DNA from: Candidatus Woesearchaeota archaeon | GTDB lineage: Archaea > Nanobdellota > Nanobdellia > Woesearchaeales > SKIA01 | Reading direction: 5' to 3' | Assembly (NCBI GenBank): GCA_043771635.1 | Contig: JAYVHA010000007.1 | Span: forward strand, 2,233 to 66,232 | Length of the DNA: 64,000 bases | Part shown: positions 3,632-63,095 of the stretch, piece after piece | How positions within the stretch are numbered: the first letter of the stretch is position 1 | Layout: each line of letters opens with the position of its first letter | Made by a program: the position numbers and the translations under genes | The notes under the pieces: generated by a model | Told to the model about the DNA's origin: nothing | Databases searched by the model: none | What the model saw: only the letters and a program-made list of their open reading frames with translations

Positions 3632-5102
<1,471 letters not shown>

Positions 5103-39851: not shown

Positions 39852-41603
39852 ATGAAACTAGTAGGGTTAAAACTAGCCTACATTAAGTCTTTTAAAACTC
39901 TGGATTGGAATATAGCCCGAACTAAGGTAATAATTGGTCAAAATGATCATGGCAAGTCCTCAATTCTTAAGATACTAAATTTTGTTCTGAACGAGATTAC
40001 CGACTATCATCTGGATCAAGGATTTTTGGAGCCTGCACTAGCAGAAAAACTAATTCCTGCATTTAGTACGAGCGCTCGCGCCAGGCGCATAACATTAATT
40101 GTGCAAGAAAAAAGCAAATATAAAGAACTGTATATTGATATTGGACGCAATTACTCCATAAAAGTTCATGATAAAATAACGCGGGGCGCTAAAACTACTC
40201 CTGCAGGCAAGAAGCTATTCACAAAGATACGTAGTAAAAATAGGTTTGAACTGGTACCAGCGATAAGAGACGTATCGTCAGAGATATATAAGCAGCTTTT
40301 TTCTACAACGCTACAGCAACACGGACTTTCAAAACTAAAACCCAAAGCCGCGGGTGGAACACAGAGAGAATACAGAGAACTACTAGCTATTAGAAATAGC
40401 ATCGATGAAATTATCCAGCCGTATGTACATAAACGATTGCTGCCCAAGTTAAGTGACGAATTTGGTTTCACGCCACAGCACGAACTTCTTCTAACATTCA
40501 ATAAGGATACAGAGGCAATTGCCGAATGGATTCAAAGCAACCTACAACTTGGTTTCAAATTAGGCAAGGAAGCAGAAGAATATATTTCAATTGATGAAGC
40601 GGGAACAGGAATACAAAGTGCCTTGCTCCTTGCGCTCATAAGATTAAAAAATAGAAGTGAAGCTGACAAGAATGTTCATTTTTTTCTTGCCATCGAAGAA
40701 CCGGAGACATTTCTACATCCACAAAAACAAAAAGAGCTTTACTCTAGCATCAAGGGATTGGAGTCTGATAACCTAACCATAATTATCACGACGCACAGCC
40801 CATACATTGTTTCTGAATCTAAATTTTCTAGCTTAGGGATAGTTCGCAAAGACGACAAGTTCTCAAACCTCCACACTGTGAAGAGCGTGCCACCAAAAGA
40901 TATGGACATATTTGACAGCTATAGTGGTGAAGTAAATTCACAATTGTTTTTTGCGGATAAAGTCATACTCGTAGAAGGAGAAAGCGATAAAAGAGTTATA
41001 GAAACAATTTTACACCGCAAATTTGGAGCCAAGTCATTTAGGTATACAGTAATTTCGGCGGCAGGCAACAGAAATTTTTCGCCATATCTAAAAATGATCA
41101 ACTGTTGGAAAGAATTGAAGATTCCTCATCTAGTTGTTACTGATTTTGATTCATTAACGGCGGGTAGCGATAGAGCCATGAATACTGGCGCAAAGGCCGC
41201 AGGATATTTGCTAAATGCTGAGCAACTGTTAAATCAAAACGTAGACGACGCGATTCAAAAAGATGAAGGCGAGTATAGAAAAATAGCCATTCAAGCAGCC
41301 AATTTCTATGCTCGTTCAGGATTAGAAGTATTCATTTGGACTTGTGACTTGGAGTATGCACTAATTTCGGATAGCAAAATAGACCCAATAGTTCGGGAAT
41401 TAAGTGCAGCGAACAATTCAAGCTATTCAGGCTACACTTGCGCTCAACTGCGTACATTAATCGGAAGCAAAGGCATCCCTCTAAACAGCGGATCAGATGC
41501 ATTAAAGAAACCGTACATACATCAAAAATTGTCGTGGCATTTAGACCTGGATGACACTGAAAGTGATGTATATCGTCTGATTCAAGCAATAAATAAGTTA
41601 TGA
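39852..41603 (+). CDS. OLD-family nuclease: N-terminal ABC-type ATPase + C-terminal Toprim
   Basis: Walker A GQNDHGKSSILK. Walker B/H-loop FLAIEEPETFLHP. Toprim ILVEGESDKRVIE and HLVVTDFDSL. Confidence 0.75.
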   Translation: MKLVGLKLAYIKSFKTLDWNIARTKVIIGQNDHGKSSILKILNFVLNEITDYHLDQGFLEPALAEKLIPAFSTSARARRITLIVQEKSKYKELYIDIGRNYSIKVHDKITRGAKTTPAGKKLFTKIRSKNRFELVPAIRDVSSEIYKQLFSTTLQQHGLSKLKPKAAGGTQREYRELLAIRNSIDEIIQPYVHKRLLPKLSDEFGFTPQHELLLTFNKDTEAIAEWIQSNLQLGFKLGKEAEEYISIDEAGTGIQSALLLALIRLKNRSEADKNVHFFLAIEEPETFLHPQKQKELYSSIKGLESDNLTIIITTHSPYIVSESKFSSLGIVRKDDKFSNLHTVKSVPPKDMDIFDSYSGEVNSQLFFADKVILVEGESDKRVIETILHRKFGAKSFRYTVISAAGNRNFSPYLKMINCWKELKIPHLVVTDFDSLTAGSDRAMNTGAKAAGYLLNAEQLLNQNVDDAIQKDEGEYRKIAIQAANFYARSGLEVFIWTCDLEYALISDSKIDPIVRELSAANNSSYSGYTCAQLRTLIGSKGIPLNSGSDALKKPYIHQKLSWHLDLDDTESDVYRLIQAINKL

Positions 41604-42045: not shown

Positions 42046-45000
42046 TTGGGTGGGCAGATAATCTGCCAAAGAGTGATAGAAGCAACAAGAAAAAACGTAC
42101 TACTCTTTATTGCATTAGTTGCACTTTTTTCTTGCGTATTTTCAGTGCGGGCTGCGGAATATAGTACTGCTACAGCTTTTCCGACAATTCCAGGCTTAGG
42201 ATTGAATACAGGTGTTGTTGCGGCTGCAGATCAGAACACTGGTGCTTTCGCATATAGTTACCAGTTTACAGTCCCTGAAGGTCCTGGCGGTTTAAAACCT
42301 GAGGTAGTACTGTCATATAATTCTCAGGCTGCTCGTGAACAGCGAGGAAACCAAGCAGCTGGCTGGGTTCTTAATAACGAGTATATTGACCGATTCCAAA
42401 ACTATACTCCATACATACTAACGGATGACGAATTCTACTTAGTATCTGGAAACGGGCGTGAGAAACTCATGTACAATGGATCTGGGACTAATAGATGGCA
42501 TACTCAGCACGAGACATTTACTTACATACAGAACTTAACATCAACTTCCAACAACTTTGGGATGTACTGGTCGATAAAGTATCCTGATGGTACAACAAAA
42601 CGTTATGGAGAATCTAGTAGTGAAGAATATGAAACCACTTACGGTGTAATGGCGAAACGCTATCATCTCGACCAGACAAATGACACATATGGCAATAAAC
42701 TACAGTTCCACTATCAACCAGCTGGAGTATTCACCTTAGACTACATAACTTATGGCGGTTCTACCCCAAGAACAGTTCAATTCGTGTATGAACCAAGACA
42801 ATATCCTAGGACCACTTACTATAATGGCTTTGAAGAACAATACACAGCTAGGCTTGCTGGAGTACAAACTACATACGGCGGAACACAAGTAAGATACTAC
42901 GATTTGAACTACTCAGTATCTGATTATTTGGAGCTATTACAATCAATAACTGAGTTATCAGCAACGAATAGCACATCATTACCAGCTACCACATTTAGCT
43001 ACTACTCAGCAACCGGGTGGATCAATCTAACCAGTCCATGGAGTCTTAACCCGCTATACTTCTTTGAATTCGAAGATGGTAAGGATTCAGGCGCCAGGGT
43101 AATTGACATAACTGGAGATGGCTTAGCTGACTACATACGACAAGTAATGTGCAATTCAAGCGCCTATAATAATACGCCTAACGTAAGTACAGCATATATG
43201 CGACAATTCCCTGGCGCAAGCAAAATAACTGTAACGGCGCAAGCATATGGAAATAGTTCTAACATGCAAAACTATGCCGTATCAGCAGGATTTCCACTAA
43301 CTGCAGCTCACAACCTTACGCAATCAGGCATTCTCAGCATCACTAATCAAGAGTATGGTCTTTACATAACTCCGAATAGAAACATATCGCTTCACCGCGT
43401 CAATGGTGATGGAATAGGTGCACCTTTCGAAATTGAGGTATTCAATGTATCATCAAGGATAGAAATCGCATCAGCTATAGGATCGAATGGCTATGCACAA
43501 TTTGACTCAGGCGTAAATTTATTCGCGCACCAGCGATATAGAGTGAGCTTTAAAGGAGCATCGCAAACGTATAGATATGGATCAGGTACAGGAGAGACTG
43601 TCAATTCAACATATCTTGCTATTGAGTGCGGCTACAGATATAATGATCCAAATGAAGGGTACTGCTATTCAATAGCATCATTCTCTATAGAGGAGCTATT
43701 TGAAAACAGCACCACTACAGGTTCCACTACCCTGAATCTAAACAACGGCGTGTACAATGGCAGGATACTTGCGGAAAACCACACGACAAAAACCTTTACG
43801 CTCACAGTTAACGGAACAGGTACGCAGCATGTATCAGATGTAGTTACCTCAAACGACTACTGTGCACCTGTACTGATAAACAACGGAAGCGGATACAACC
43901 TAGACGATGGCACTTGGAGAGTACCTACAAACTACTCGTTCGTGGACAATGGCACTGATTTAGGCACAAGATTTGCAGACATAAATGGAGATGGCCGCGT
44001 TGATCTCGTGCGAAGCGACTGCACCGCCGGAAAAACATTCAACGGAGTGATGCTAAACAATGGAGCTGGCTGGACTGCAACAAACTGGACTGTTCCAGCG
44101 GGTTACTGCATCATAGATGCCGGTTACAACGCAGGAACAGAACTTCTTGACGTAAACGCAGACGGAAGAGCAGATCTAGTAAACGGACGCGATCAAGCGC
44201 CGCTTATACTAAAAACAGCACTAAACACAGGATCTGGCTGGTCTAACTCAACTCAATTTACTCCACCAGTAGCCACAATGACCTACCTTGGAGGAGACGA
44301 CAGTGTGCGATACGTTGATATGAATGGAGATAATCTCGTGGATGTTCTTCAGCAATGCGGAGCTACAGCTTGCAGATCCTCTTACTTGAATAATGGTTCT
44401 GGCTGGAAATCAACGCAGGTATGGTGGACGCCTACCACGTACGCGTTTACTAACGGAATAACTGACGAGGGACTGCGACTAGTGGATCTTAACGGAGACG
44501 GGCTAACCGACATATTGAGGAGAAAGAATTGCACCTCCATTAACTGCTATGGAGTGCTGTTCAACAATGGAAGTGGCTGGATACAAGATACTTCAACATT
44601 ATGGATACCAAACAATACAATGGCGTTTACCATCGGTGAAAAAAACAAAATAATTCGACTAACAGACATAGATGGAGACGGAGCAGTAGATCTTGTTAAA
44701 CGAGATTTGTGTACAACCGCGGACTGTAATACTACACTGCGAAGCTTAGGAGCTAATAACAACCTGCTGCAATCAATAAAGTACAGCACCGGCGGAAACG
44801 TGACCGTTACGTACAACTACTCTGCTCGCAAAAAGAACCTCGGAACAGACAATATCGCAGACATGCCCTACTCTCTACCCGTGGTCGAAACGATAACGCA
44901 GGCAAATGGTATTAGCGGGGCGTCCCAAAGACAAGAAACGACAGGTTACAACTATTCGGGTGCCGTTTACGCAAGAAACGCTTGGACAAGTGAGTTCCGA

Positions 45001-47106
45001 GGATTCGCCACCACAAACCAAACTATAGGTAGAAAAAGAATCTCGACAAACTGGTTCCAATCAACAGGTCTCGAAGGCCGAATTAAGTATCGCGAAACAC
45101 ACGACGGCAGCACAAGGCTCAGAAACGAATCAAGCGACACATTTGTGCACAACTCATCCTATATTTACAAAGCGGTAACGCTGGGCGTTACAACAGCCCA
45201 ATACGATGGAAACTCAACACCTTGGACGACAATAACGAACTTTACGTACGACCAGTACGGAAACGCCCTCACGGAATACTCGCAAGGCGACACAGCAATA
45301 ACTGGTGATGAGCGTCTAAAGAATAAAACTTACACTGCGAACACCGCATTATGGATCATTAATACAGTCAATAAAGAGCAGCTACTGGCTGCAAATAACG
45401 TAACAATTCTGCGGCAAACTAACTACAGCCGAAACACACAAGGATCAGTCAGCGGAGAAGAAAAATTCCTATCTGGAGGAACGAACACGTACAAGAACTA
45501 CACGTACGATGCGTACGGCAACATAAACAGAACAGCAGACGAAAGAGGATACGTAACAGCACAAACGTACGACTCATCCGGAACATTCCCCCTGACAACG
45601 CTTAATGCCCTCGGACAGTACACATACAGAACCTGGAACTCATCGCTTGGCACCTTAATTAGCGAAAACGACAGTAACAACTACTCGACAAACCACATGT
45701 ACGACGCATTCGCAAGAAAACTAACAACAACAAAACCGTACGACACAACAGCATCACCAACAGTATCGCACAGCTATTCATTTGACGGAGTAAGCCCCGA
45801 ATCAATTACAACTACGACAAAGATAAACGCAACAACAAACGCAGTAACAATCCAGTACCTGGACGGCCTAGGAAAAGTAGTACAAACCAAACAACTAGCA
45901 GAAGATGCACTGTACGCAGTACAAGACTTCACGTACGACACTCAAGCACGACTAAACCAAACAACAAACCCATACTACTCAAACAACAGCAGCTACGCAC
46001 ACCCCATACTAACCAACGGTTACTCGGGAATAACATACGACGCACAAGACAGACCAACACAACTAAGGTACGCAGATAGTAGGACAAAAAACACAACCTA
46101 CGCCAAGAACGTCACAACCAGTTATGATGAAAACGCGGAAAGAACAGACACGGTAAAAGATGCATACGCAAATACTATACGGATACTAGAGTACTTGAAC
46201 GGAACTGCATACGCGACTTCGTACACGTATGACGCAGTAAGCCAGCTACTAACAATTGAAGATGCACAAGGCAACGACATAACGTTCAGCTACGACACGT
46301 TTGGCCGAAAGACCTCACTTGTCGATCCTGACCTCGGAACTTGGAACTACACCTACGATGCTGCAGGTAACTTAGTTTCTCAACGTGACGGCCGCGGCGT
46401 GACAGTATCCCTCTCGTACGACGCACTGAACAGGGTAACTCGCAAAAACGGAACATCAAGCGCAATGGACTTCACATACGATACCATCGCAAAAGGAACA
46501 TTGGCAAAAGTGGCTCTGACAAGCGCGAACAAGACATTCGCGTACGACCAACGTTTACGACGCACGCAAGAGAACTTGAGCATAGACGGAATAACATTCA
46601 GCACGAATTATAGCTACGACAGTGCAGACCACCTCATCCAGAAGAATATGACGAATGGGACTAGCATTAGATATACGTATAACGCTTTTAACAAACCTGA
46701 GAGTATTACAGGGATAATTAATGACTTTGATTATGTTGCTGTAGGCCAGCCAAGCGGCCGCGCGTATAACAATACACTCACAACAAACCTGACTTACGAC
46801 ACGAATAGCTTGCGTCTTAGCCGCATATATACGGGCACGAAGCAAAACATGAGTTATAGTTACGATGCTGTTGGAAACATATTGTTAATTACAGATGTCG
46901 CAAATAACGCGTCAGAAACATACACGTACGACGACTTAAACAGAATTAGCACGGCGAACAGAATAGTAAACGGAACAACACAATTTAGTGCAGCATACAC
47001 AGTAAGCCCAATTAACGTAATTACGAAGATAGTCACAAATAGTTGGACTAAGACTTTCAGCTTCGGATCTGCGCCAGTGCATGCTCCAAGCGAGGCAGCA
47101 GAGTGA
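42046..47106 (+). CDS. TcB-like RHS/YD-repeat protein: SpvB-N domain, FG-GAP-like beta-propeller, long YD-repeat shell (no RHS core)
   Basis: Signal-like NVLLFIALVALFSCVFSVRA. SpvB-like PGLGLNTG..YSYQFTVPEGPGGLKPEVVLSYNS..AGWVL. Repeats DINGDGRVDLV, VDLNGDGLTDIL, TDIDGDGAVDLV with NNGSGW. Dozens of YD repeats (YTYDAAGNLVSQRDGRG, YDALNRVTRK). Start codon uncertain (TTG/GTG). Confidence 0.85.
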   Translation: MGGQIICQRVIEATRKNVLLFIALVALFSCVFSVRAAEYSTATAFPTIPGLGLNTGVVAAADQNTGAFAYSYQFTVPEGPGGLKPEVVLSYNSQAAREQRGNQAAGWVLNNEYIDRFQNYTPYILTDDEFYLVSGNGREKLMYNGSGTNRWHTQHETFTYIQNLTSTSNNFGMYWSIKYPDGTTKRYGESSSEEYETTYGVMAKRYHLDQTNDTYGNKLQFHYQPAGVFTLDYITYGGSTPRTVQFVYEPRQYPRTTYYNGFEEQYTARLAGVQTTYGGTQVRYYDLNYSVSDYLELLQSITELSATNSTSLPATTFSYYSATGWINLTSPWSLNPLYFFEFEDGKDSGARVIDITGDGLADYIRQVMCNSSAYNNTPNVSTAYMRQFPGASKITVTAQAYGNSSNMQNYAVSAGFPLTAAHNLTQSGILSITNQEYGLYITPNRNISLHRVNGDGIGAPFEIEVFNVSSRIEIASAIGSNGYAQFDSGVNLFAHQRYRVSFKGASQTYRYGSGTGETVNSTYLAIECGYRYNDPNEGYCYSIASFSIEELFENSTTTGSTTLNLNNGVYNGRILAENHTTKTFTLTVNGTGTQHVSDVVTSNDYCAPVLINNGSGYNLDDGTWRVPTNYSFVDNGTDLGTRFADINGDGRVDLVRSDCTAGKTFNGVMLNNGAGWTATNWTVPAGYCIIDAGYNAGTELLDVNADGRADLVNGRDQAPLILKTALNTGSGWSNSTQFTPPVATMTYLGGDDSVRYVDMNGDNLVDVLQQCGATACRSSYLNNGSGWKSTQVWWTPTTYAFTNGITDEGLRLVDLNGDGLTDILRRKNCTSINCYGVLFNNGSGWIQDTSTLWIPNNTMAFTIGEKNKIIRLTDIDGDGAVDLVKRDLCTTADCNTTLRSLGANNNLLQSIKYSTGGNVTVTYNYSARKKNLGTDNIADMPYSLPVVETITQANGISGASQRQETTGYNYSGAVYARNAWTSEFRGFATTNQTIGRKRISTNWFQSTGLEGRIKYRETHDGSTRLRNESSDTFVHNSSYIYKAVTLGVTTAQYDGNSTPWTTITNFTYDQYGNALTEYSQGDTAITGDERLKNKTYTANTALWIINTVNKEQLLAANNVTILRQTNYSRNTQGSVSGEEKFLSGGTNTYKNYTYDAYGNINRTADERGYVTAQTYDSSGTFPLTTLNALGQYTYRTWNSSLGTLISENDSNNYSTNHMYDAFARKLTTTKPYDTTASPTVSHSYSFDGVSPESITTTTKINATTNAVTIQYLDGLGKVVQTKQLAEDALYAVQDFTYDTQARLNQTTNPYYSNNSSYAHPILTNGYSGITYDAQDRPTQLRYADSRTKNTTYAKNVTTSYDENAERTDTVKDAYANTIRILEYLNGTAYATSYTYDAVSQLLTIEDAQGNDITFSYDTFGRKTSLVDPDLGTWNYTYDAAGNLVSQRDGRGVTVSLSYDALNRVTRKNGTSSAMDFTYDTIAKGTLAKVALTSANKTFAYDQRLRRTQENLSIDGITFSTNYSYDSADHLIQKNMTNGTSIRYTYNAFNKPESITGIINDFDYVAVGQPSGRAYNNTLTTNLTYDTNSLRLSRIYTGTKQNMSYSYDAVGNILLITDVANNASETYTYDDLNRISTANRIVNGTTQFSAAYTVSPINVITKIVTNSWTKTFSFGSAPVHAPSEAAE

Positions 47107-50100
47107 ATCGAATGTTCCTTGCTGTCATGTTCGTTGCATTAGCATTAGCAATTCCTTCGGCATTAGCTGATAACATCACTAATGAAACGAACAACTCAAT
47201 TCCAATACTATTACCGAACGGCACGATCAACACAACAGCCCCAGTAATTATACTCGTGCCAACAGAGAATGTAGTAGAACAGCCTGCTGTAACAATATCA
47301 GAACCAAACCCTAAGCCTGCCGATGAGCCACAAGTAATTGAGGCTCTAGAACTTGTTGTAGCTCCTACTGAACCTCGTGACGCGCCCACACGCGACCCAG
47401 CAACAGTAGACGCACCCATACCTTATTGCGGACATAAGTCATGCGCAAAGGAGATTCTGACTACTGTGCGTGTTTCTGAAACAGCGTTTGGACGGCAGGA
47501 GATACTACAGCTAGAAAAAGATCCAAATTACCCGTGTACCATCGAAGAAGGCGGATTTGTAGTATGCGAGCCAATAACTCCTCAAGGAGAAGCAGCATTA
47601 AGGGCTGCATACGACCTCTCCGAAGGAATTCCCACTACAGACTACCGCCAGCCAGTTTACGAAGGATATTCAAGCCAACTGAGTACAGGCATCGTACGCG
47701 GAGTGAGAATTGGTTCTTACAAACGATCCACGATCAACCCTACCGTCCGGCAAAGATTCGAAATTAACGCTTCCGAACCTGGCGTATTCGTCGTAGGATT
47801 CGCCTCAAACGTCTTTGTCGTGTCAGACTTTAATTACGGTACGTGCGAGAACTGCTCAATTGGCACAACACAAGTAACACTTGAAAACTACCACTCGACA
47901 GACGCAGCACAAGCGCTTTCATGGCGTTTCTCAGGAAACGGACTAGACAGCTCAGGAAACGCAAACACAGCAACATTCGGCGGAGCAGCATACGTAAACA
48001 ACACATTTGCTGATGGTTTCGCGTTTAATGATGCCAATAAACTATCAGCTCCAGATGCCGCTAGCCTTGATATTTCAAACATGACGTTGTCTTTCTGGGT
48101 TCGGTTTAAATCCCTAACAGAAAACCAAACACTGATTTACCGCTACACATCAACAAACGGGTACTTATGCGAATTCGCTAAATACGACACAACAGGAATT
48201 CAATGCTACACAAGAAACTCAACAGCAGGAGGTGCTGCATGGGTACAGACAGGAGGAGCTAGCGAGACACAAAACCCTGACTATGAAATAAACAAATGGT
48301 ACCACATAGTACTAACCTATAACCTAAGCTCAGGAAACCTAAGCATATACCAAGACGGAACACTAAAGCACTCAAAAATTGCAACAAACCACAGCATGTC
48401 GTCAACAGCTTCATTCAAATGGGGAGCGGACTACTTCGACGCGTTCAACGGAACTGTAGACGAAATAAACCTCTACAGCAGAACATTCTCAGCAACAGAA
48501 GTAACATCCCTGTACAACTCGGGCTTATACCTAGTAAACCCATCATACGGAAACTACACAAGCATGATTGACCTCGGCCAATCATCGACTGTTTCAAGTG
48601 TGTCTTGGACTGGAAGTGGAAACCTAACAATAGCAGCAAGAACCGGAGACTATGCAAAACCAGGATTAACAGATACTGGACTATTCGGGTACTGGCCACT
48701 AAACCAATCACTGCTTTGTAAGGATGCGAACAGCCGTTATAACGGAACAGCATCATCAGGAGTAATCTGTGGAAACGTATCAGGACCATTCGTGCTAGAA
48801 AACGCAACATGGTTTGACAGCGACACCGACAAAATAACTCTACCACTCGCGACAAACTTCACCAACTGGTCTGTGCAAGTATGGGTGCGAAGCGATGGCA
48901 CATGTGTCGACGGACAAAACATATTCGCAAAAGGATGGGACTACCGAATATACACAACAAGCTCTTGCGGCATAACCATAGTATCAGCGAACAGCAGTGG
49001 CTCAAACAAATCAATGTCGTCCGTATGCTCAATATCCGACGGCCGATGGCACTCACTAGCATACGTATACAACGACACAGCAAAGACCGCGTACGCGTAC
49101 TGCGACGGAGTACAAAAGTCTAGCGTGACTCAGCAAGGCACAGCAACCTCATCAACTAACTTCACAATCGGCGGAGGAACTTCCGGCTTGACCTTCAGAG
49201 GATCCGTAGCGCAAGTATCATTATGGAATAAGACACTAGCACCAGCAGACCTAGTAGCATGGAACACGTGGAGCAGCACGCTCACATCAGGAAACGACCC
49301 AGGACTAACAGACGGCAGGTATGTACAATATTCAGCAATACTGCGCACGAACGATACTCGCAATACTTCGATGCTGACTAGCGTAAGCGTAGGCACAAGC
49401 AGTTCTTGCTCACTTTCAAACGGAGGTTACAACGTAACCCTAATGAACGGCGCATCAACAGGAAGCGGATACGCAACACTAGATGGAACTGATGATAGAA
49501 TAGATACTGACCTAAATGTTAGTTCTGTACTTAATAACGGAAGCTTCACACTTGCCATGTGGGTGAAAAGTGATGTCGACAGTGGGCAGCGAGCATTCTG
49601 GAGCGCGGACAGTAGCGGAACAGATAGATTCTATTTACGACAGAGCGATATAAGCTCAAACCAAGTAGTGCTCGGCGCCAGTAGCTGGAATCCGGTGTTG
49701 ACAGGTTATGGTGCTTTGAGTAACTGGACACATTACGTCCTGATTATTAACGGAACTAGTGGCCTATTCTACCGTAACGGGTTGAACGTTGCTAACACAA
49801 CAGGAATAACAAAGAACTATCCAGGAAAATACTTACGATTCGGCGCTAACGGCGATACACTAGCAGAAACACACGACGGAAACATAGACGGGATAAACCT
49901 ATACAACCGAGCACTAACATTAACAGAAGTTAGCCAGCTGTACACAAACATAACTGTAACAACCGGTCAAATACTTAGCATAGAATTCAATACCTGCAGC
50001 GCAACAACGAGTTTAACATACGACCCTAACGGAAACATGGTTTACGACGGTACGTATACCTACGAGTATGATTCATTCAATAGGTTGACCAAAATCTGGC

Positions 50101-51218
50101 TTGGTTTAGCGAATACTACCAACGTGTCAGCGTACTTGTATGACGACGAAGGAATTAGAATCAGAAAAATAGAATACAACACCACATCAGGTGCCATTCT
50201 TTCTAGAACATATTACCCTGACGATGACTTTGTACGCGTTTACAACGCAAGCAATCAAACCACTGACGAGGTTTACTATCGTGTCGACGGAACATTGCTC
50301 GCACAAATGAAAGGGAACAACTTGACCTTTATTCATACTAACCATTTGGGAACGCCTGACCTCGTCACGAGCACAACCGGTAGCACGATCGAGACGACAA
50401 AACTCGACCCTTACGGAAACGACATAACAGGGGGGAACAGTCGCTATGTTTTTACTGGCCATGAACGTGATACAGAAACTGGGCTAGATTACATGAAGGC
50501 AAGGCACTATAGTCCAGACCTCGCGATGTTTGTACAACCGGATAGTTTACTAGAAGATATATACTCTCCGCAAAAATTGAATAGATATGCGTATGTTTCA
50601 AACAGGCCGACGATTTATACAGATCCGACCGGGCAGTACAGTTGTGATGCAACGGGAGGATGCATTAGTTTCTGTGTGGGGTTCATATGTCCAATAATGA
50701 ATGCAGTTCCAGATGAAGGAGACAATCCTGACGTAGGTTTATACAACGGCAAAAATGTTCGTTTTGCTAACCAGGAACAAAATGCCTTTATGAGTGCTGT
50801 TATTTCGTTAACAACTATGGGAGGAGTTAGATCGTTTGGATTAGCCTCTAGTACTAAAGTTACCGGCAATAATGCTGTGAATTACGCAGATCTTCCTGAG
50901 GATGTCCAAAACACCCTGGCCAAAGTCAAATCCGGAGAAAAGTTACCCTATGCCAAGGATGGAACAATATATCAAAATAGAAACGAAGCTCTTCCAAAAC
51001 AAGCCGCTAATTATTACCGCGAGTATACAGTCCAAGCAGACCCTGCAAAAGGTAGAGGGACCAATAGGTTGGTAGTTGGAAATAATGGAGAGACTTACTA
51101 CACAACAAACCATTATGGCTCATTCAAAAGGGTCACCTCTGAGCCTGACCGCACTAATTTTAATCAAGCGTATAAAATGCTACAGAGAGCAGTAAATAGA
51201 ATTGGAGGCAATAAATGA
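47103..51218 (+). CDS. secreted LamG x3 - RHS-repeat - RHS core - barnase-family RNase toxin (polymorphic toxin)
   Basis: Signal MFLAVMFVALALAIPSALA. Three ConA/LamG-like domains. YD repeats. RHS core RYVFTGHERDTETGLDYMKARHYSPDLAMFVQPDS..YVSNRPTIYTDPTGQ. C-terminus GTIYQNRNEALPKQ..YREYTVQ..GRGTNRLVV..YYTTNHYGSFKRV aligns to barnase (GDIFSNREGKLPG..WREADI..RNSDRILY..YKTTDHYQTFTKI). Confidence 0.85.
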   Translation: MNRMFLAVMFVALALAIPSALADNITNETNNSIPILLPNGTINTTAPVIILVPTENVVEQPAVTISEPNPKPADEPQVIEALELVVAPTEPRDAPTRDPATVDAPIPYCGHKSCAKEILTTVRVSETAFGRQEILQLEKDPNYPCTIEEGGFVVCEPITPQGEAALRAAYDLSEGIPTTDYRQPVYEGYSSQLSTGIVRGVRIGSYKRSTINPTVRQRFEINASEPGVFVVGFASNVFVVSDFNYGTCENCSIGTTQVTLENYHSTDAAQALSWRFSGNGLDSSGNANTATFGGAAYVNNTFADGFAFNDANKLSAPDAASLDISNMTLSFWVRFKSLTENQTLIYRYTSTNGYLCEFAKYDTTGIQCYTRNSTAGGAAWVQTGGASETQNPDYEINKWYHIVLTYNLSSGNLSIYQDGTLKHSKIATNHSMSSTASFKWGADYFDAFNGTVDEINLYSRTFSATEVTSLYNSGLYLVNPSYGNYTSMIDLGQSSTVSSVSWTGSGNLTIAARTGDYAKPGLTDTGLFGYWPLNQSLLCKDANSRYNGTASSGVICGNVSGPFVLENATWFDSDTDKITLPLATNFTNWSVQVWVRSDGTCVDGQNIFAKGWDYRIYTTSSCGITIVSANSSGSNKSMSSVCSISDGRWHSLAYVYNDTAKTAYAYCDGVQKSSVTQQGTATSSTNFTIGGGTSGLTFRGSVAQVSLWNKTLAPADLVAWNTWSSTLTSGNDPGLTDGRYVQYSAILRTNDTRNTSMLTSVSVGTSSSCSLSNGGYNVTLMNGASTGSGYATLDGTDDRIDTDLNVSSVLNNGSFTLAMWVKSDVDSGQRAFWSADSSGTDRFYLRQSDISSNQVVLGASSWNPVLTGYGALSNWTHYVLIINGTSGLFYRNGLNVANTTGITKNYPGKYLRFGANGDTLAETHDGNIDGINLYNRALTLTEVSQLYTNITVTTGQILSIEFNTCSATTSLTYDPNGNMVYDGTYTYEYDSFNRLTKIWLGLANTTNVSAYLYDDEGIRIRKIEYNTTSGAILSRTYYPDDDFVRVYNASNQTTDEVYYRVDGTLLAQMKGNNLTFIHTNHLGTPDLVTSTTGSTIETTKLDPYGNDITGGNSRYVFTGHERDTETGLDYMKARHYSPDLAMFVQPDSLLEDIYSPQKLNRYAYVSNRPTIYTDPTGQYSCDATGGCISFCVGFICPIMNAVPDEGDNPDVGLYNGKNVRFANQEQNAFMSAVISLTTMGGVRSFGLASSTKVTGNNAVNYADLPEDVQNTLAKVKSGEKLPYAKDGTIYQNRNEALPKQAANYYREYTVQADPAKGRGTNRLVVGNNGETYYTTNHYGSFKRVTSEPDRTNFNQAYKMLQRAVNRIGGNK
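48495..50530 (+). repeat. ~2-kb direct repeat copy 1 (inside main RHS gene), partner at 51609-53650
   Basis: acagaagtaacatccctgtacaactcgggcttatacctagtaaacccatcatacgg.. recurs at 51609 with ~95% identity. Identity decays after the conserved RHS core. Confidence 0.85.
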
Positions 51219-51541
51219 CAAAGGAAAAAACACTGACTAAGAATTTGAACGCAGACATCCTTGTTAATTTGTCCAATGTGGCAAGTAAAAAAAAAGTGTT
51301 CGAGATATTTAGTTCAGAACTATTTTTTCCAGAGTATTTCGGACACAACTGGGATGCGCTATATGACTGCTTAACAGACCTTGTTTGGCTTCCAAAAGTT
51401 AAAACAACTATTACAGTCTGTCTTCCAAAAAGGCTTTCTAACAATGATAAACTCGTTTTAGTAAGATTGCTTCAGGATGTAGACGCCTACTGGGAGCAGG
51501 AAAAGAGACATATTAGGGTCAAAATTGGTAATAACAATTAG
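51215..51541 (+). CDS. barstar-family immunity protein
   Basis: ELFFPEYFGHNWDALYDCLTDLVWLP versus barstar [26 protein letters not shown]. ATGA overlap with the toxin stop. Confidence 0.8.
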   Translation: MTKEKTLTKNLNADILVNLSNVASKKKVFEIFSSELFFPEYFGHNWDALYDCLTDLVWLPKVKTTITVCLPKRLSNNDKLVLVRLLQDVDAYWEQEKRHIRVKIGNNN

Positions 51542-54269
51542 GTCATTAAATTCTGTATTAGAAGCCTGCATAGAGGGAGTTGCACAGTACAATCGCACTA
51601 GATCTATGACAGAAGTAACATCCCTATACAACTCAGGCTTATACCTAGTAAACCCATCATACGGAAACTACACAAGCATGATAGACCTCGGCCAATCATC
51701 GACTGTTTCAAGTGTGTCTTGGACAGGCAGCGGAAACCTAACAATAGCAGCAAGAACCGGAGACTACGCAAAACCAGGATTAACCGATACAGGACTATTC
51801 GGGTACTGGCCACTAAACCAAACACTGCTTTGTAAGGATGCGAACAGCCGTTATAACGGCACAAATTCAAGTGGGGTCATATACGGCAATGTTACAGGCC
51901 CATTTGTTCTAGAGAACGCAACGTGGTTTGACAGTGACACTGACAAAATAACTCTACCACTCGCGACAAACTTCACAAACTGGTCTGTGCAAGTATGGGT
52001 AAGAAGCGATGGCACATGTGTCGACGGACAAAACATATTCGCAAAAGGATGGGACTACAGAATATACACAACAGGTTCGTGTGGCATAACCATGGTATCA
52101 GCAAACAGTAGCGGATCAAACAAAACAATGGCATCAGTGTGCTCAATTTCAGACGGCCGATGGCACTCACTTGCATACGTATACAACGACACAGCAAAGA
52201 CCGCGTACGCGTACTGCGACGGAGTACAAAAGTCTAGCGTTACTCAGCAAGGCACAGCAACCTCATCAACTAACTTCACAATCGGCGGAGGAACATCCGG
52301 ACTAACCTTCAGAGGATCAGTTGCGCAAGTATCGTTATGGAACAAGACACTAGCACCGGCAGATCTAGTAGCATGGAACACGTGGAGCAGCACACTAACA
52401 TCAGGAAACGACCCTTTACTTTCTGACGGAAGATATGTGCAATACAGCGCAATACTGCGCACGAACGACACTCGCAATACTTCGATGCTGACCAGCGTAA
52501 GCGTAGGAACAAGCAGCTCCTGCTCACTATCAAACGGAGGATACAACGTAACCCTAATGAACGGCGCATCAACAGGAAACGGCTACGCAACACTAGACGG
52601 CGTTGACGACCGCATATCAACAGACATGAATGTTAGTTCCGCTCTTAGCAACGGAAGCTTCACGATATCTATGTGGGCAAAAAGCGACGCAGACGCTGGC
52701 CAACGAACGTTCTGGAGCGCAGACACAAACGGCTCCGATAGATTCTACTTCCGTCAATCAGACGTAAGTTTAAACCAAGTTGTACTGGGCATGAGCAGTT
52801 GGAATACAGTATTGACAGGCTACGGGGCTTTGAGTAACTGGACGCACTATGTGCTAGTAATTAGCGGCACGAGCGGAACGTTGTATCGCAATGGCGTAAA
52901 TATCGCAAACATGAGCGGCATAACAAAGAACTATCCTGGAAAATACTTACAACTAGGAGCAAACGCTGAATGGTACGCAGAAACGATGGACGGGAACATG
53001 GATCGAGTTGCAATATACACTCGCGCATTAAACAACACAGAAGTAGCTCAACTATACGCAAATACGAGCGTGAGCAGCGGACGCATATTCAACTTAGATT
53101 TCGACCCTTGCAACGGCAGCACTAGCCTAACATACGATGCCAACGGAAACATGGTTTACGACGGTACGTTCACTTACGAATATGATTCATTCAATAGATT
53201 GACCAAAATCTGGCTTGGATTAGCAAATACTACCAACGTGTCGGCGCACTTGTATGACGACGAAGGAATTAGAATCAGAAAAATAGAATACAACACCACA
53301 TCAGGCGCCGTTCTTTCTAGAACATACTACCCAGACGATGACTTTGTACGCGTTTACAACGCGAGCAATCAAACCACAGACGAAGTTTACTATCGTGTCG
53401 ACGGAACATTACTTGCTCAAATGAGAGGCAACAACCTAACGTACATCCATCCAAACCATCTAGGTACACCTGATTTGGTGACAAACAGTTCTGGAGGAAC
53501 CGTAGAGGTCACAAAACTGGACCCCTACGGAAATGACATAACTGGTGGAAATGGCAGATATGCTTTCACTGGCCATGAACGAGACACAGAAACTGGGCTA
53601 GATTACATGAAGGCAAGGCACTATAGCGCAGATCTTGCGATGTTCGTGCAGCCAGATTCGATTAAAGAGAATGTGTACGATCCACAAACACTAAATCCAT
53701 ACGGCTACGTTAGAAATAATCCGACTAACAAAGTTGACCCGACCGGCATGTTTAGCTCTCAACTCCTCGGACTAGGAGTCTTTATGGCAAGTGCTAATAC
53801 TGGTGCTGCGCTATACGGAGGTCCGTTCGGAATTGGTTTTGCAGCAATAGAAGGCCCAATAACCATTTCAGTTATTGCGACTTCATTCATTATTGATGAA
53901 GATGAGACTGATGAGTATGCTCGTGCTTTTGCTGCAGGTTCGATTTCGGCAGAATTCTTGGTCACTGCCAAGGACATATATAATACGGGATCTGTTTCAG
54001 GAGTGCCATTCACAGGACCAGCAGGCCAAGCGTTATACGGCACATATGGCAATAATAGACGGCAGACCTTCCTGAAAGAAGCACAAGCACGCCAGGACTC
54101 TCAACGAGACAAATCTATCGAGAGGGAGTACAAAGGCAAATCCATGAGTACTCCTAGTGGCAAGGAGGCAAAAATAGATAAAGTGCTGCGAGGTAATAGT
54201 GGTAAGATCTGGGTTATTAGTGAACCCTATAAAAAAAATTCTAATGGCAGTAGTAGGGACAAGAAATGA
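51525..54269 (+). CDS. orphan RHS C-terminal cassette (LamG x2 - YD repeats - RHS core - alternative C-terminal toxin CT2); may lack an authentic start
   Basis: From nt 51609 it is ~95% identical to 48495 onward of the main gene. RHS core RYAFTGHERDTETGLDYMKARHYSADLAMFVQPDS..NPTNKVDPTGMF. Divergent tail with Gly-rich hydrophobic segment GLGVFMASANTGAALYGGPFGIGFAAIEGPITISVIATSFII. Confidence 0.6.
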   Translation: MVITIRSLNSVLEACIEGVAQYNRTRSMTEVTSLYNSGLYLVNPSYGNYTSMIDLGQSSTVSSVSWTGSGNLTIAARTGDYAKPGLTDTGLFGYWPLNQTLLCKDANSRYNGTNSSGVIYGNVTGPFVLENATWFDSDTDKITLPLATNFTNWSVQVWVRSDGTCVDGQNIFAKGWDYRIYTTGSCGITMVSANSSGSNKTMASVCSISDGRWHSLAYVYNDTAKTAYAYCDGVQKSSVTQQGTATSSTNFTIGGGTSGLTFRGSVAQVSLWNKTLAPADLVAWNTWSSTLTSGNDPLLSDGRYVQYSAILRTNDTRNTSMLTSVSVGTSSSCSLSNGGYNVTLMNGASTGNGYATLDGVDDRISTDMNVSSALSNGSFTISMWAKSDADAGQRTFWSADTNGSDRFYFRQSDVSLNQVVLGMSSWNTVLTGYGALSNWTHYVLVISGTSGTLYRNGVNIANMSGITKNYPGKYLQLGANAEWYAETMDGNMDRVAIYTRALNNTEVAQLYANTSVSSGRIFNLDFDPCNGSTSLTYDANGNMVYDGTFTYEYDSFNRLTKIWLGLANTTNVSAHLYDDEGIRIRKIEYNTTSGAVLSRTYYPDDDFVRVYNASNQTTDEVYYRVDGTLLAQMRGNNLTYIHPNHLGTPDLVTNSSGGTVEVTKLDPYGNDITGGNGRYAFTGHERDTETGLDYMKARHYSADLAMFVQPDSIKENVYDPQTLNPYGYVRNNPTNKVDPTGMFSSQLLGLGVFMASANTGAALYGGPFGIGFAAIEGPITISVIATSFIIDEDETDEYARAFAAGSISAEFLVTAKDIYNTGSVSGVPFTGPAGQALYGTYGNNRRQTFLKEAQARQDSQRDKSIEREYKGKSMSTPSGKEAKIDKVLRGNSGKIWVISEPYKKNSNGSSRDKK
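51609..53650 (+). repeat. ~2-kb direct repeat copy 2 (orphan RHS cassette)
   Basis: See copy 1. Confidence 0.85.
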
Positions 54270-54556
54270 ATTCAAAGCAATTTCCCGTGCGTGTGCGACC
54301 AACTCAGTTAATTGCCGGGGCAGTATTCTTTTTCGGCTTTTTGGGACTATTGTTTGCCTTCAAGTATCTGCCACTCCAATCGGCTATCGGATTGACAATG
54401 GTCTACGTAGTGATATTTGCTTTGGTTGTGGCTAACATCAAGAAGTTAATTTTATACGTTGAAAGCGGACTTCTTTATAGACTTCTGGTTTGGTTATTGA
54501 GCCTAATCTTCTTTATACTCTTCATCTTGCAAGTTATTAAGTTACTTTCTAATTAA
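54266..54556 (+). CDS. small 3-TM membrane protein, candidate immunity protein for orphan toxin CT2
   Basis: ATGA overlap with the orphan cassette stop. 96 aa, three hydrophobic helices. Confidence 0.5.
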   Translation: MNSKQFPVRVRPTQLIAGAVFFFGFLGLLFAFKYLPLQSAIGLTMVYVVIFALVVANIKKLILYVESGLLYRLLVWLLSLIFFILFILQVIKLLSN

Positions 54557-55002: not shown

Positions 55003-55188
55003 ATGTTATGTATGGTTAAAACGCGTCTTGTGGGTTTTCGCGTGAGTGAGGAGCAGTATTTTTTGCTTCGTTTGTGGGCGCGACAGGATGGCTTGGGGGT
55101 TTCTAGCTACGTCAGAATGCGTTTTTTTAGGAAGGAGCGGGCTGCGGGCAAGGAAATGGCCTCTGAGGGCGAGAAAAATGGATATTGA
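55003..55188 (+). CDS. ribbon-helix-helix (CopG/Arc-like) DNA-binding protein
   Basis: TRLVGFRVSEEQYFLLRLWARQDGLGVSSYVR resembles the RHH beta-strand plus two helices. Confidence 0.45.
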   Translation: MLCMVKTRLVGFRVSEEQYFLLRLWARQDGLGVSSYVRMRFFRKERAAGKEMASEGEKNGY

Positions 55189-55351
55189 GTTGCTTCGTGG
55201 TGAGCGGCGTTGCTTTTACTGCACAAATACTGTATGGAACGCCATGTGCGCTTACACCGAGGATTGTATGTCCCGGTCTGAATTCATCCGTGTTGCGATA
55301 GAGGAGAAGCTTCTTCGTGATTCGGAGAATTTACGGGAAAAACGCAAATGA
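55178..55351 (+). CDS. ribbon-helix-helix (CopG-like) DNA-binding protein
   Basis: MSRSEFIRVAIEEKLLRD RHH motif. Start taken at internal ATG 55178 of ORF 55046-55351. Overlaps the previous RHH gene by 11 nt. Confidence 0.45.
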   Translation: MDIELLRGERRCFYCTNTVWNAMCAYTEDCMSRSEFIRVAIEEKLLRDSENLREKRK

Positions 55352-55477
55352 GCATATAAAACTCATTAGCTTAGTTGAAATCACAATGAAGGCTATAGTT
55401 GAACTTTCCAATGAAGAATATGAGACGCTTGCAAAGAATTTCGACGAAGGAACCGGTACACGTATTCGAATGTTTAT

Positions 55478-56269
55478 TCATCTAAATTGAGAGTTAGTAC
55501 GTAGCTGCTTACTCCGCCTTCTAATAGTTACTTCGACGACTCCAGTGTAGCGTGTAAACAGTCTCTGTGCGCGGTATTCGCCTGTTGTTTGCATCGCGAC
55601 GTACAGGCTTGTTGCTGCGAGCGTACTTGGCTTAAGGCCGTTACTGGCATTCATTCCTGCGTATTGTATTGCTAGAGTTACTGTGTTGCTTGGCAGCCGT
55701 AGTCTTGTTGCGAACCGCGGTATGAGGTCTATTGCTTCTATCGTGCCCGTTCTTATTTTTAGAGCTCTTTGAATGTGTTTTGCAGCCTTAAGCAATTCAG
55801 CTTTAGGTATTTCTGTGTGCGCAGTAATTTCTAGCGCTGTTTGCGGCGTTCCGGCGTCGATGCATGCAATGTATACTGCTGCGTATGCAAATGCCTGATT
55901 GCTTCTGCCGATTGTTATTTCTTTATTGGTTACTTCGAGGAACATTCTTTTTGCTTCTGCCGCTACGGTTTTAGGTGCTTTAATTCTTGATACTAGAAGG
56001 TCTATTTCGCTGCATGTTGCTCGGAAGTTTTTTTGTTTGGTTGTTAATAGCCATGATTCTGTTAGGTGTCTTCCGTTTGTGTTGAAGGTGCCTGCTTGCG
56101 CTAAGGCTGGATGTGATGCGTGGCTGCCTTCGGATAACAAGGTACTTTGTTCTATTCTGTTGTCTTCAAGCACTAACCCGCAGCCTAGGCACACTAGCTC
56201 TCCTTGGGATTCTCTAAATCTCTTTTCCGCGCATTCAGAGCACCGCATTAGAATCTTCGCCTCCTTCAT
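55478..56269 (-). CDS. tfb: transcription initiation factor TFB (TFIIB) homologue, short form
   Basis: N-terminal Zn ribbon CSECAEKRF..GELVCLGCGLVLED. Cyclin-fold region NQAFAYAAVYIACIDAGTPQTALEIT. Confidence 0.7.
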   Translation of the reverse strand: MKEAKILMRCSECAEKRFRESQGELVCLGCGLVLEDNRIEQSTLLSEGSHASHPALAQAGTFNTNGRHLTESWLLTTKQKNFRATCSEIDLLVSRIKAPKTVAAEAKRMFLEVTNKEITIGRSNQAFAYAAVYIACIDAGTPQTALEITAHTEIPKAELLKAAKHIQRALKIRTGTIEAIDLIPRFATRLRLPSNTVTLAIQYAGMNASNGLKPSTLAATSLYVAMQTTGEYRAQRLFTRYTGVVEVTIRRRSKQLRTNSQFR

Positions 56270-56507
56270 CGGTAAAGTATAGTAGTACTGGCATTGTCTT
56301 CTGTTCGGAGAGTTTTTCGAGCCTGCTTAGCACTTGTTCTTTGCTTAGGCATAGCTCCATAACGTATTCTACTTTTGAGCTGCTTGAGCTGAATAGCTGT
56401 CGCACGGGTAATTTTAGATCTATTCTTCTTCGGCTATCGTTGTAGAGTACTTTCCCTGTTATGGTTACGATTTTGTTTGTTGTGCCGAATAGTATTTTTT
56501 CTCCCAT
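56235..56507 (-). CDS. hypothetical protein (90 aa)
   Basis: ORF lying between the ATPase and TFB genes in the same orientation. Confidence 0.3.
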   Translation of the reverse strand: MGEKILFGTTNKIVTITGKVLYNDSRRRIDLKLPVRQLFSSSSSKVEYVMELCLSKEQVLSRLEKLSEQKTMPVLLYFTDEGGEDSNAVL

Positions 56508-56617
56508 CCCGTATACATATACTGTATTTCATAATTTATCTACTTTCGCGTGATAATTTCAATGTATTTCCGGCGTTTCCGGATTACCGACGGCGCCACC
56601 CCTAAATCCAGGCCTAA

Positions 56618-62882: not shown

Positions 62883-63095
62883 TGACGGAAGAACCTAAAC
62901 CAAATAGAAAGCCTCCCTTCTACGACCCTGAGATAATGGGGACAAGAGACGAAACGCTTCAATACAAGTCGAACGATCCTCGTAAGGGCAAAGATTCAAA
63001 ATAATTTTTAACTTCTTTTACACTTTCAAAGCAGAAAGATATGAGCGCAACCTAGAATGTGAAGCATCAGACATTCGTTCAACGTTGGGCGCCCA

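Follow-up and report, generated by a model that had tools for sequence, protein, structure and literature searches.

We analysed a 64,000 nt stretch of DNA from a Candidatus Woesearchaeota archaeon (the window, to which all positions refer), in which an earlier note, made from the sequence alone, had pointed out a toxin-like locus at 42046-54556 on the forward strand. This block consists of five co-directional open reading frames (ORFs), ORF1 to ORF5, and agrees in its position with that note. We propose, with a probability of roughly 0.65, that the block encodes a Sec-exported RHS polymorphic toxin made as two polypeptides, that it belongs to the "SpvB + beta-propeller + RHS" (TcdB/TcaC) type, and that it lies on an acquired island in the genome of a DPANN archaeon. 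The five ORFs are as follows.

42046-47106, forward strand: ORF1, TcB-like shell protein, 1686 aa from TTG (Pfam/NCBIfam, AlphaFold2, Foldseek, hydropathy)
47103-51218, forward strand: ORF2, fusion of lectin array, predicted shell plug and toxin, 1371 aa
51215-51541, forward strand: ORF3, barstar-family putative immunity protein, 108 aa
51525/51606-54269, forward strand: ORF4, orphan cassette, 887 aa from the ATG at 51606
54266-54556, forward strand: ORF5, putative immunity protein, 96 aa

For ORF1 we used the TTG at 42046 as start; gene callers choose the GTG at 42073, which gives 1677 aa. The N-terminus has a single hydrophobic segment followed by an AxA-type site, with Sec cleavage predicted approximately between VRAA and EY, and the remainder of the protein is laid out as follows.

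N-terminus: predicted signal peptide
residues 65-228: SpvB-like domain
residues ~345-890: FG-GAP propeller
residues 366-610 (43141-43875, forward strand): insert of ~245 aa inside the first propeller blade, from homologue alignments and Pfam
residues ~866-993: TcdB_toxin_midN
from there to residue 1686: RHS/YD shell

The description of this protein as TcB-like in the earlier note is well supported by the domain searches. The complete protein matched FG-GAP_3 (E 8.5e-14, 52 bits) and RHS_repeat (E 1.4e-11, 45 bits) of Pfam and YD_repeat_2x of NCBIfam (E 2.6e-12), and when it was scanned in segments SpvB (25.3 bits, cut-off 22) and TcdB_toxin_midN (50.7 bits) were found as well. A sequence search of the Protein Data Bank (PDB) returned generic Rhs-repeat matches alone and no TcB; the link to TcB is made by the Pfam matches together with a fold search. 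In an AlphaFold2 (AF2) model residues 881-1686 are predicted to form uninterrupted beta-hairpins (predicted local distance difference test, pLDDT, 85; predicted TM-score 0.79). When compared with solved structures by Foldseek this model matched all RHS cocoons with E <1e-13 and fitted the fused TcdB2-TccC3 cocoon best, with a query TM-score (TMq) of 0.81-0.82. The values were lower for TcB-only structures (~0.45), TcC-only structures (0.2-0.24) and teneurins (<=0.46), and the Rhs proteins of type VI secretion systems (T6SS, 0.31-0.58) fitted less well than the Tc BC structures. The best fit to the fused cocoon is consistent with an ORF1 that would cover TcB plus much of the TcC shell, which means that the split between the two chains is not the canonical TcB/TcC split. 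The protein ends with HAPSEAAE within YD repeats and has no Rhs core. Homologues align to residues 20-376 of ORF1 and resume at residues 583-615, and the insert in between is absent from the single-chain homologues compared. It has no Pfam match, is covered by none of the homologue alignments obtained and is possibly an extra binding domain.

The start of ORF2 overlaps the stop codon of ORF1 in a GTGA sequence (an alternative start is the ATG at 47112). The layout of its product is given below.

residues 4-22: predicted signal peptide, cleaved between SALA and DN
residues 23-271 (47169-47915): Pro-rich linker and Cys-containing domain
residues 272-955: three laminin-G (LamG) domains
from residue 971: YD repeats, starting with LTYDPNGN
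residues 1102-1178 (50406-50636, forward strand): Rhs-associated core, predicted aspartyl autoprotease plug (TIGR03696, alignment of relatives)
residues 1178-1371: toxin tail
50853-51134, forward strand: RNase domain of the barnase / RNase Sa (N1/T1) family (PF00545), within the tail

The earlier note had seen here a secreted protein with an RHS core, DPxG motifs and a barnase-family RNase, and these parts were all recovered. The Rhs_assc_core model TIGR03696 matched with E 1.9e-18 (66.7 bits), DPxG motifs occur at residues 974, 1102 and 1174, and the three LamG domains were identified as Laminin_G_3 (E 2e-51). In an alignment with 21 relatives the core residues D1147 (VQPDS) and D1174 (TDPTG) fall into the invariant columns D198 and D225, and self-cleavage is predicted to occur right after DPTG (nt 50622-50633). 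The tail of ORF2 also matches the C-terminal ends of the solved Rhs shells 8qja, 7q97 and 8h8a and of Tse5. Residues 1251-1344 match Ribonuclease PF00545 (E 2.4e-16, 60.5 bits, cut-off 24). Residue-level alignments place RNase Sa3, Sa2 and Sa nearest to this domain (E 3e-17 to 2e-16), which keeps the equivalents of E54, R65, R69, H85 and Y86 of RNase Sa. The region between signal peptide and first LamG domain (residues 23-271) has no family match and no homologue alignment covering it. Among 5.8 billion proteins the best match to ORF2, other than ORF2 itself and ORF4, covers 18% of its length, so that no other protein in this set shares the full architecture.

ORF3 starts within the stop codon of ORF2 (ATGA) and is, as the earlier note had stated for both the overlap and the family, a barstar homologue (PF01337, E 9e-22, 77.3 bits, cut-off 23.4). 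The equivalents of Y29, D35, D39 and T42 of barstar are kept, and the matched chains include 1ay7_B from the RNase Sa-barstar complex. For the acidic barnase-binding helix (D35, D39) the alignment sets 'PEYFGHNWDALYDCLT' against 'PEYYGENLDALWDCLT'. Compared with the known pairs of RNase Sa or barnase with barstar (PDB 1ay7, 1brs) both the catalytic residues and the acidic residues of the inhibitor are thus kept, and the inhibitor gene directly follows the RNase gene. The locus differs from these pairs in that an RHS protein carries the RNase as its C-terminal cargo, where the known RNases are free secreted enzymes, and in that ORF3 has an N-terminal extension of ~15 aa. A barnase-tipped relative is also found in a Saccharibacteria metagenome-assembled genome (MAG; locus L064).

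The earlier note had expected a closed YD shell in the product of 47103-51218. This expectation was not confirmed: ORF2 holds ~200 residues of YD shell and the core, and the shell lies mainly in ORF1. The split becomes clear from 75 related loci in species-representative genomes, a set which is biased toward close relatives by the pattern-based scan used to collect it. The closest relatives of ORF1 are 34-37% identical. Archaeal labels are carried by 36 of the 75 loci (Woesearchaeota, Nanoarchaeota, Pacearchaeota, Altiarchaeota, archaeon AR15, Methanosarcinales MAGs and the isolate Methanosarcina sp. DH2) and bacterial labels by 39, 20 of these from the Candidate Phyla Radiation (CPR)/Patescibacteria. 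In most of the bacterial relatives shell and core are united in one chain of 2000-2800 aa. At least 13 archaeal-labelled loci, by contrast, have a TcB-like gene (1500-1990 aa) which is followed by a gene of 416-455 aa, with a 4-nt overlap in 10 of the pairs. These small proteins, which we call mini-TcCs, have a signal peptide of their own and a start that reads L[ST]YDANGNL, reach the DPxG of their core near residue 230 and end in a tail of ~200 aa; further ORFs with core and tail often follow the split pairs. In single-chain relatives the equivalent of the ORF1 C-terminus is followed within ~10-30 residues by the equivalent of residue ~967 of ORF2. We found this colinearity in Methanosarcina sp. 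DH2 and in a Terriglobia, a Bacteroidales and a Nomurabacteria MAG, with the family consensus HAxT-x9-YDxNGN at the junction. Because of this colinearity ORF1 and residues 967-1177 of ORF2 correspond to one continuous shell broken at this point: ORF1 holds nearly all of the shell, and ORF2 has the last ~200 residues and the predicted aspartyl-protease plug.

These data also bear on the possibility that ORF1 and ORF2 do not form a joint cocoon at all. ORF2 would then be a self-contained RNase which is secreted and tethered by its lectin domains, its YD/core stub being vestigial, and ORF1 would be either an empty shell or a surface protein acting independently. Separate signal peptides on the two proteins and the large N-terminal part specific to ORF2 would fit such an arrangement. 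However, ORF1 has no core or plug and ORF2 has exactly the missing C-terminal segment of the shell, colinear with the single-chain relatives; the mini-TcCs match just positions ~690-891 of a teneurin YD-shell profile of 909 positions; and the gene order with 4-nt overlaps is kept in at least 10 loci. We therefore consider two unconnected proteins improbable. As to the tails of the mini-TcCs (loci L005-L080), they are diverse and mostly unannotated, 8 out of 10 having no Pfam match to a toxin domain; a colicin-E3-type "Cytotoxic" domain (L009) and DUF6765 (L005) were recognized. Judged by their sequences these tails should be a pool of uncharacterised archaeal toxin domains.

The 3′ part of the block (51525-54556), which the earlier note had enclosed without describing it, contains a truncated paralogue of ORF2 and a second putative immunity gene. 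The features of this part, together with the matching segment of ORF2, are the following.

48495-50543, forward strand: direct repeat, copy 1, 2.05 kb
51609-53657, forward strand: direct repeat, copy 2, offset by 3114 nt from copy 1
52059-52172, forward strand: variable tract in the orphan, 114 nt, with 17 single-nucleotide polymorphisms (SNPs) against locus L081
53748-54266, forward strand: C-terminal domain of ORF4, 173 aa, candidate second toxin (hydropathy, motifs)

The two copies of the repeat are 84% identical in nucleotide sequence overall, with a mosaic pattern in which the identity per 100 nt varies between 97% and 62%. As 51609-53657 is a direct repeat of 48495-50543, ORF4 duplicates residues 452-1185 of ORF2, that is, LamG2, LamG3, the YD repeats and the Rhs core, with 85% amino acid identity. 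The ATG of ORF4 at 51606 lies exactly at the boundary of homology, and by hydropathy there is no signal peptide. The core of ORF4 matches TIGR03696 (E 2.2e-18, 66.5 bits), and directly after DPTG (nt 53736-53747 in ORF4) the two proteins become unrelated. In the C-terminal domain of ORF4 the first ~50 residues are rich in Gly and Ala, hydrophobic and contain small-xxx-small repeats, and the tail is charged; this domain is probably membrane-active. It has no homologue but itself among 1.84 billion representative proteins and no match in Pfam, NCBIfam or PADLOC. ORF5, whose start overlaps the stop codon of ORF4 (ATGA), has three predicted transmembrane segments, no match in Pfam, NCBIfam or PADLOC, and is a putative immunity protein for the C-terminal domain of ORF4. 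From its sequence, we regard ORF4-ORF5 as an orphan toxin/immunity cassette in the layout which is classic for polymorphic toxins (PMC3482391), and the 2-kb repeat as a predicted substrate for the exchange of toxin cassettes.

A trace of such an exchange might be present in the assemblies. Over 22.4 kb, 18 substitutions separate the window from locus L081, which was recovered from a different sample. Of these, 17 are the SNPs of the variable tract, and at all of them the base of L081 is the base of the ORF2 paralogue. The 18th lies at 48965 in ORF2, and there L081 has the base of the orphan paralogue. The contig of a sister sample (L002) stops at 52057, at the edge of the tract. The pattern looks like the footprint of gene conversion between the expressed ORF2 and the orphan ORF4.

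In the window LamG is not encoded by a gene of its own; the three LamG domains are placed in ORF2, after the signal peptide and before the YD repeats start. In an iterated profile search ~22 of the related loci, almost all of them archaeal, were found to have a secreted LamG-family protein (430-840 aa) encoded beside the TcB-like gene, usually immediately upstream of it (gap of 135 nt at most, or a 4-nt overlap). For the neighbour proteins of L021, L023 and L079 the assignment was confirmed by Pfam Laminin_G_3. In the single-chain proteins P0011, P0013, P0023 and P0026 a LamG domain separates the bulk of the RHS shell from the last YD/core segment, a stretch in which single-chain relatives carry LamG or other inserts. 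As LamG is fused to the plug protein in ORF2 and encoded beside the TcB-like gene in those ~22 loci, we read the fusion in the Rosetta-stone sense, with LamG probably acting together with the cocoon and being located at its seam. Lectin domains of the concanavalin A (ConA) type generally bind glycans, and because of this general function the LamG domains of ORF2 would be a glycan-binding targeting module. The closest TcB-like relatives (L079/L080 and P0001/P0002, 1920-1930 aa) run on at the C-terminus for a further ~240 aa past the HAPS motif, so that they have an accessory domain on the TcB side of the seam at which ORF2 has LamG on the TcC side.

Both large proteins are dense in N-x-S/T sequons, as the earlier note had remarked in support of an N-glycosylated exoprotein. 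We compared the counts with composition-matched shuffles and found 63 sequons in ORF1 against 30.4 expected (z 6.9) and 43 in ORF2 against 21.8 (z 5.3). For ORF1, ORF2 and ORF4 the counts are about twice those of the shuffles (z 5.3-6.9), and none of 2000 shuffles reached the observed values. The enrichment is located on the shell and LamG parts; the toxin tails have no sequon in 189 aa (ORF2) and one in 169 aa (ORF4). In TcB-like homologues the median enrichment is 2.09-fold in archaeal (n=30) and 1.02-fold in bacterial proteins (n=30; Mann-Whitney p 1.7e-9). The enrichment in the archaeal proteins supports the idea of glycosylated exoproteins and argues for a long residence of the lineage in archaea. 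Two loci deviate from their labels: L015 (CAZMZH010000022.1, labelled Nitrospinota) is archaeal-like, its genes being split and preceded by a LamG gene and its enrichment 2.05-fold, and L055 (Methanosarcina sp. DH2, NZ_WJBI01000010.1) is bacterial-like, with shell and core in one ORF and 0.68-fold enrichment. Mis-binning or recent transfer between the domains could account for both.

The locus is genuinely archaeal, and its host is a DPANN, Woesearchaeota-like organism. The earlier note had placed it in an archaeal setting, and this proved correct: an archaeal 23S rRNA (large subunit), tRNA-Ala and 16S rRNA (small subunit) lie at 1-5102 on the minus strand, a TFIIB gene stands directly downstream of the toxin locus, and the nearest named relatives of the prolyl-tRNA synthetase (ProRS, 18205-19662; 61-50% identity) are nearly all from Woesearchaeota, Nanoarchaeota or Pacearchaeota, that is, from DPANN. 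The locus is present in no GTDB species representative genome, the best relative of ORF1 there having 35-37% identity. The same contig has, however, been assembled from several independent samples (83,367, 84,053 and 80,523 nt and two short contigs). The four copies retrieved are 100-99.9% identical to the window over the overlap, and the two long ones cross both junctions of the locus. The correlation (r) of relative synonymous codon usage with core genes is 0.1-0.47 across 39.8-61.6 kb, from an OLD-family nuclease to a VirB4-like operon, against mostly 0.6-0.83. Given this poor correlation we take the toxin locus to lie on an acquired island and not on a misjoined fragment.

A chimeric assembly, in which a bacterial fragment has been joined to an archaeal contig by misassembly or a binning error, was one of the refuting cases named in the earlier note. 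Besides the atypical codon usage of the block it could draw on a fall of the GC content to 0.39-0.42 at 39-43 kb and on the fact that the family is also common in bacteria. Yet it would have to explain how an 80-84 kb contig arises from several samples with 99.9-100% identity across both junctions, why TFIIB follows just beyond the locus, why the nearest homologues are archaeal and why the sequon enrichment matches the archaeal and not the bacterial homologues. Sigma-70-like promoter sites are fewer than in shuffled sequences (17 against 26.1), a scan which is uninformative for an archaeon. We have rejected a chimeric or bacterial origin, which on these grounds is scarcely credible.

Among known systems the locus resembles most closely the RHS toxins of the TcdB/TcaC type, for which signal peptide, SpvB, integrin-like propeller and RHS have been described as the common architecture, with a range that includes Euryarchaeota (Zhang, de Souza, Anantharaman, Iyer and Aravind 2012, PMC3482391). 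In our locus we find the N-terminal modules with signal peptide, SpvB and beta-propeller, RHS repeats in a predicted YD shell, a core with the Asp pair and DPxG followed by a variable C-terminal toxin, divergent tails with adjacent small genes for putative immunity, and an orphan cassette. It differs in being split, ~200 residues before the cleavage site, into two Sec-exported chains, in having three LamG domains at the seam and a DPANN host, and in the second cassette, whose C-terminal domain has no homologue.

With the TcB-TcC cocoon (TcdB2-TccC3, PDB 4o9x and 6sup; YenB-YenC2, 4igl) the locus shares SpvB, the FG-GAP propeller, TcdB_midN, a two-chain RHS cocoon and an aspartyl-protease core freeing an encapsulated C-terminal toxin, which in our case is predicted from the sequence. 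There is unlike in these toxins no TcA partner, the split point is a different one, both chains have signal peptides, the TcC-like chain carries a LamG array, and the locus has an immunity gene and an orphan cassette; these last two point to a microbial rather than an animal target. The claim of a complete Tc toxin made in the earlier note could thus not be upheld. We found no ORF of TcA size or with TcA domains in the 64-kb window and none in the related locus L079. Canonical TcCs have 851-1050 aa, with an N-terminal RHS half-shell of ~650 aa followed by core and hypervariable toxin (PMC7861908), and ORF2, by contrast, has 1371 aa, a signal peptide, three LamG domains and about 130-140 aa of YD repeats before the core. 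In ORF1 and ORF2 alike a hydrophobic segment is followed by an AxA-type site, and the same is seen in the related loci; Tc subunits have no Sec signals and are assembled in the cytoplasm. If the system were nevertheless a canonical three-component Tc (ABC) toxin, its TcA gene would have to lie elsewhere in the genome. The hallmark domains of TcB and the best structural match to TcdB2-TccC3 speak for this. Against it stand the missing TcA in the window and in L079, the one related locus inspected, the Sec signals of both subunits and the size and architecture of ORF2, and in addition a study in which 1,966 archaeal genomes were screened for Tc loci names archaea in its methods alone. A canonical Tc toxin was therefore rejected as highly improbable.

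Other relatives share parts of the design. WapA of Bacillus subtilis is a Sec-dependent cell-surface RHS toxin with a nuclease tip and the immunity protein WapI and acts in interbacterial competition. The locus has in common with it Sec export without outer membrane or injector, the RHS shell, an RNase-type C-terminal toxin and a linked immunity gene; WapA differs in being a single chain with cell-wall-binding repeats, in having neither SpvB/propeller nor LamG array, and in not being archaeal. ORF4-CT and ORF5, but not the rest of the locus, recall the T6SS pore-former Tse5 of Pseudomonas aeruginosa and Tsi5 (PMC10684867) by glycine-zipper-like hydrophobic stretches and a small membrane immunity protein; the likeness is compositional alone, with no sequence similarity and no T6SS/PAAR/VgrG module. 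Neither PAAR, VgrG nor a prePAAR/chaperone-binding N-terminus was found in ORF1 or ORF2 with Pfam and NCBIfam. Like our DPANN locus, the SPEARE proteins of Nanohaloarchaeota bring together laminin-G domains and a part that was modelled on the ABC-toxin BC subunit (Hamm et al. 2019, PMC6642349). They are, however, single giant membrane-anchored proteins of 3,000-8,500 aa with protease and restriction-endonuclease domains and without Rhs-core/toxin/immunity cassettes, and no protease or restriction-endonuclease domain and no C-terminal transmembrane segment is seen in ORF1 or ORF2.

The earlier note had considered the system new for the archaeal domain, and in this respect it went too far. Makarova et al. 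(2019) have reportedly surveyed archaeal polymorphic toxin systems. In a later paper of the same group polymorphic toxins are predicted in many archaea, with DNase and RNase tips as the commonest, and as of 2021 no archaeal polymorphic toxin system had been experimentally characterised (PMC8416519). The SpvB-propeller-RHS class and the pair Tox-Barnase/Imm-Barstar, the latter with RHS repeats and TcdB/TcaC export, had both been listed with Euryarchaeota in their range (PMC3482391), so that the claim fails; 36 of our 75 related loci are archaeal as well. This kind of system and its occurrence in archaea are already known. In the literature on DPANN or Woesearchaeota together with RHS, YD repeat or polymorphic toxin, which did not cover Makarova et al. 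(2019), there is no description of the system; within that same scope, what we did not find described are the division into two chains that each bear a Sec signal, the recurrent LamG partner and its fusion, the DPANN setting and the tail without homologue.

We propose the following course of events for the two-chain toxin. ORF1 and ORF2 would be translated from the coupled, GTGA-overlapping genes, be exported by Sec and be N-glycosylated on their exposed surfaces. Outside the cell the two chains would assemble into a closed cocoon around the self-cleaved RNase. The three LamG domains of ORF2, on the outside at the seam, would bind glycans on the surface of the target cell, perhaps together with the propeller of ORF1 and its 245-aa insert. 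The RNase would then enter the target cytoplasm and degrade RNA, and ORF3 would protect the producer and its kin. ORF4-ORF5 would be a promoterless and signal-less spare cassette, which recombination across the 2-kb repeat could move into the expressed gene.

Several points weigh against this proposal. Encapsulation after separate export is its weakest step and a real mechanistic difficulty; to our knowledge, an RHS cocoon put together from two chains that Sec exports separately has not been described before. No translocation device (TcA, T6SS or CdiB) is found in the 64-kb window which could explain the entry of the toxin. The AF2 model of residues 950-1371 of ORF2, calculated from a 22-row alignment, has a pLDDT of 54 (below 50 in the RNase part) and was not used for a fold search; the arrangement of plug and RNase is a prediction from sequence. 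Expression, glycosylation and toxicity are deduced from sequence, and the off-core codon usage would mark the system as a recent acquisition, which weighs on its presumed activity in the host. The homologue-less C-terminal domain of ORF4 could be a decayed remnant, and the tract of SNPs could stem from an assembler switching between repeats of 84-97% identity.

The same machine might alternatively be a host-directed effector of an episymbiotic DPANN cell, with LamG and propeller serving for attachment, the guanyl-specific RNase killing the host or freeing its RNA as a source of nucleotides, and barstar protecting the producer only before export. DPANN archaea usually cannot make nucleotides, the organism is DPANN-like, and it is in DPANN and CPR/Patescibacteria (20 of the 39 bacterial loci), both groups rich in episymbionts, that the relatives nearest to ORF1 cluster. 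For the SPEARE proteins of DPANN, which have laminin-G and regions resembling BC toxins, an action on hosts has been suggested (PMC6642349), and RNA scavenging in a "vampiristic" lifestyle has been proposed for some DPANN MAGs, several Woesearchaeota among them (PMC9723730). On the other hand, competition between kin and non-kin has as its signature orphan cassettes, C-terminal domains that diversify and immunity genes in tight linkage (PMC3482391), the membrane immunity protein of the second cassette suggests re-entry of the toxin into sister cells, and no host is known for this organism. We regard a host-directed effector as unlikely. A broader idea, which we put forward as a speculation, is that LamG protein, TcB-like shell and mini-TcC with signal peptide form a recurrent triad which would be a self-sufficient, TcA-independent delivery machine used on hosts and typical of DPANN/CPR episymbionts and their methanogen neighbours. 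Sec would export each part on its own, assembly would follow outside the cell, and LamG would be the receptor-binding subunit; the fusion in ORF2 would show that LamG docks at the seam.

Returning to the polymorphic toxin proposed here, the locus offers an unusually tractable entry to archaeal polymorphic toxins, with the well-understood barnase/barstar pair, a clean predicted cleavage site and a second, putative toxin/immunity pair. The split cocoon with its two Sec signals raises the question whether a BC-type capsule can close around its cargo extracellularly. The concentration of the family in DPANN, Methanosarcinales-labelled MAGs and CPR makes it a candidate mediator of conflict between symbiont and host or between symbionts, in groups in which interactions between cells are difficult to investigate by other means.

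The right flank of the locus (55003-63809) is a conjugation-like block with the following genes.

55003-55188: NikA-like ORF of 61 aa
55478-56269, minus strand: TFIIB
56618-59617, minus strand: VirB4/TraC/TraG-like ATPase
59617-61638, minus strand: protein of 673 aa with no family match
61635-61964, minus strand: TrbC-like or type IV secretion system pilin-like protein of 109 aa
63096-63809, minus strand: N6/N4 DNA methylase

As this block departs from the usual codon usage just as much as the toxin genes do, the whole region from 39.8 to 64 kb may be one integrated mobile element with the toxin as cargo. Also on this side, a protein of 151 aa (62427-62882, forward strand) matches models of PycTM, the transmembrane effector of Pycsar systems (E 6e-10), with no adjacent cyclase gene visible.

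Directly upstream of the locus a stand-alone OLD/GajA-like ATPase-TOPRIM nuclease is encoded at 39852-41603 on the forward strand (GajA, E 7.5e-41; Old, E 3e-35); a GajB-like partner was not seen in the window. It is preceded by another defence-type gene, that of a DEDDh/RNase T exonuclease (39157-39726, minus strand). Within the 23S rRNA gene there is a group I catalytic intron at 797-1121 on the minus strand (Rfam RF00028, 55 bits). Finally, at 9920-15250 on the forward strand a protein of 1776 aa combines GSDH, a cytochrome-D1-type propeller, two malectin domains, cupredoxin/sulfocyanin-like domains and PEGA domains, which is unusual for a DPANN genome.

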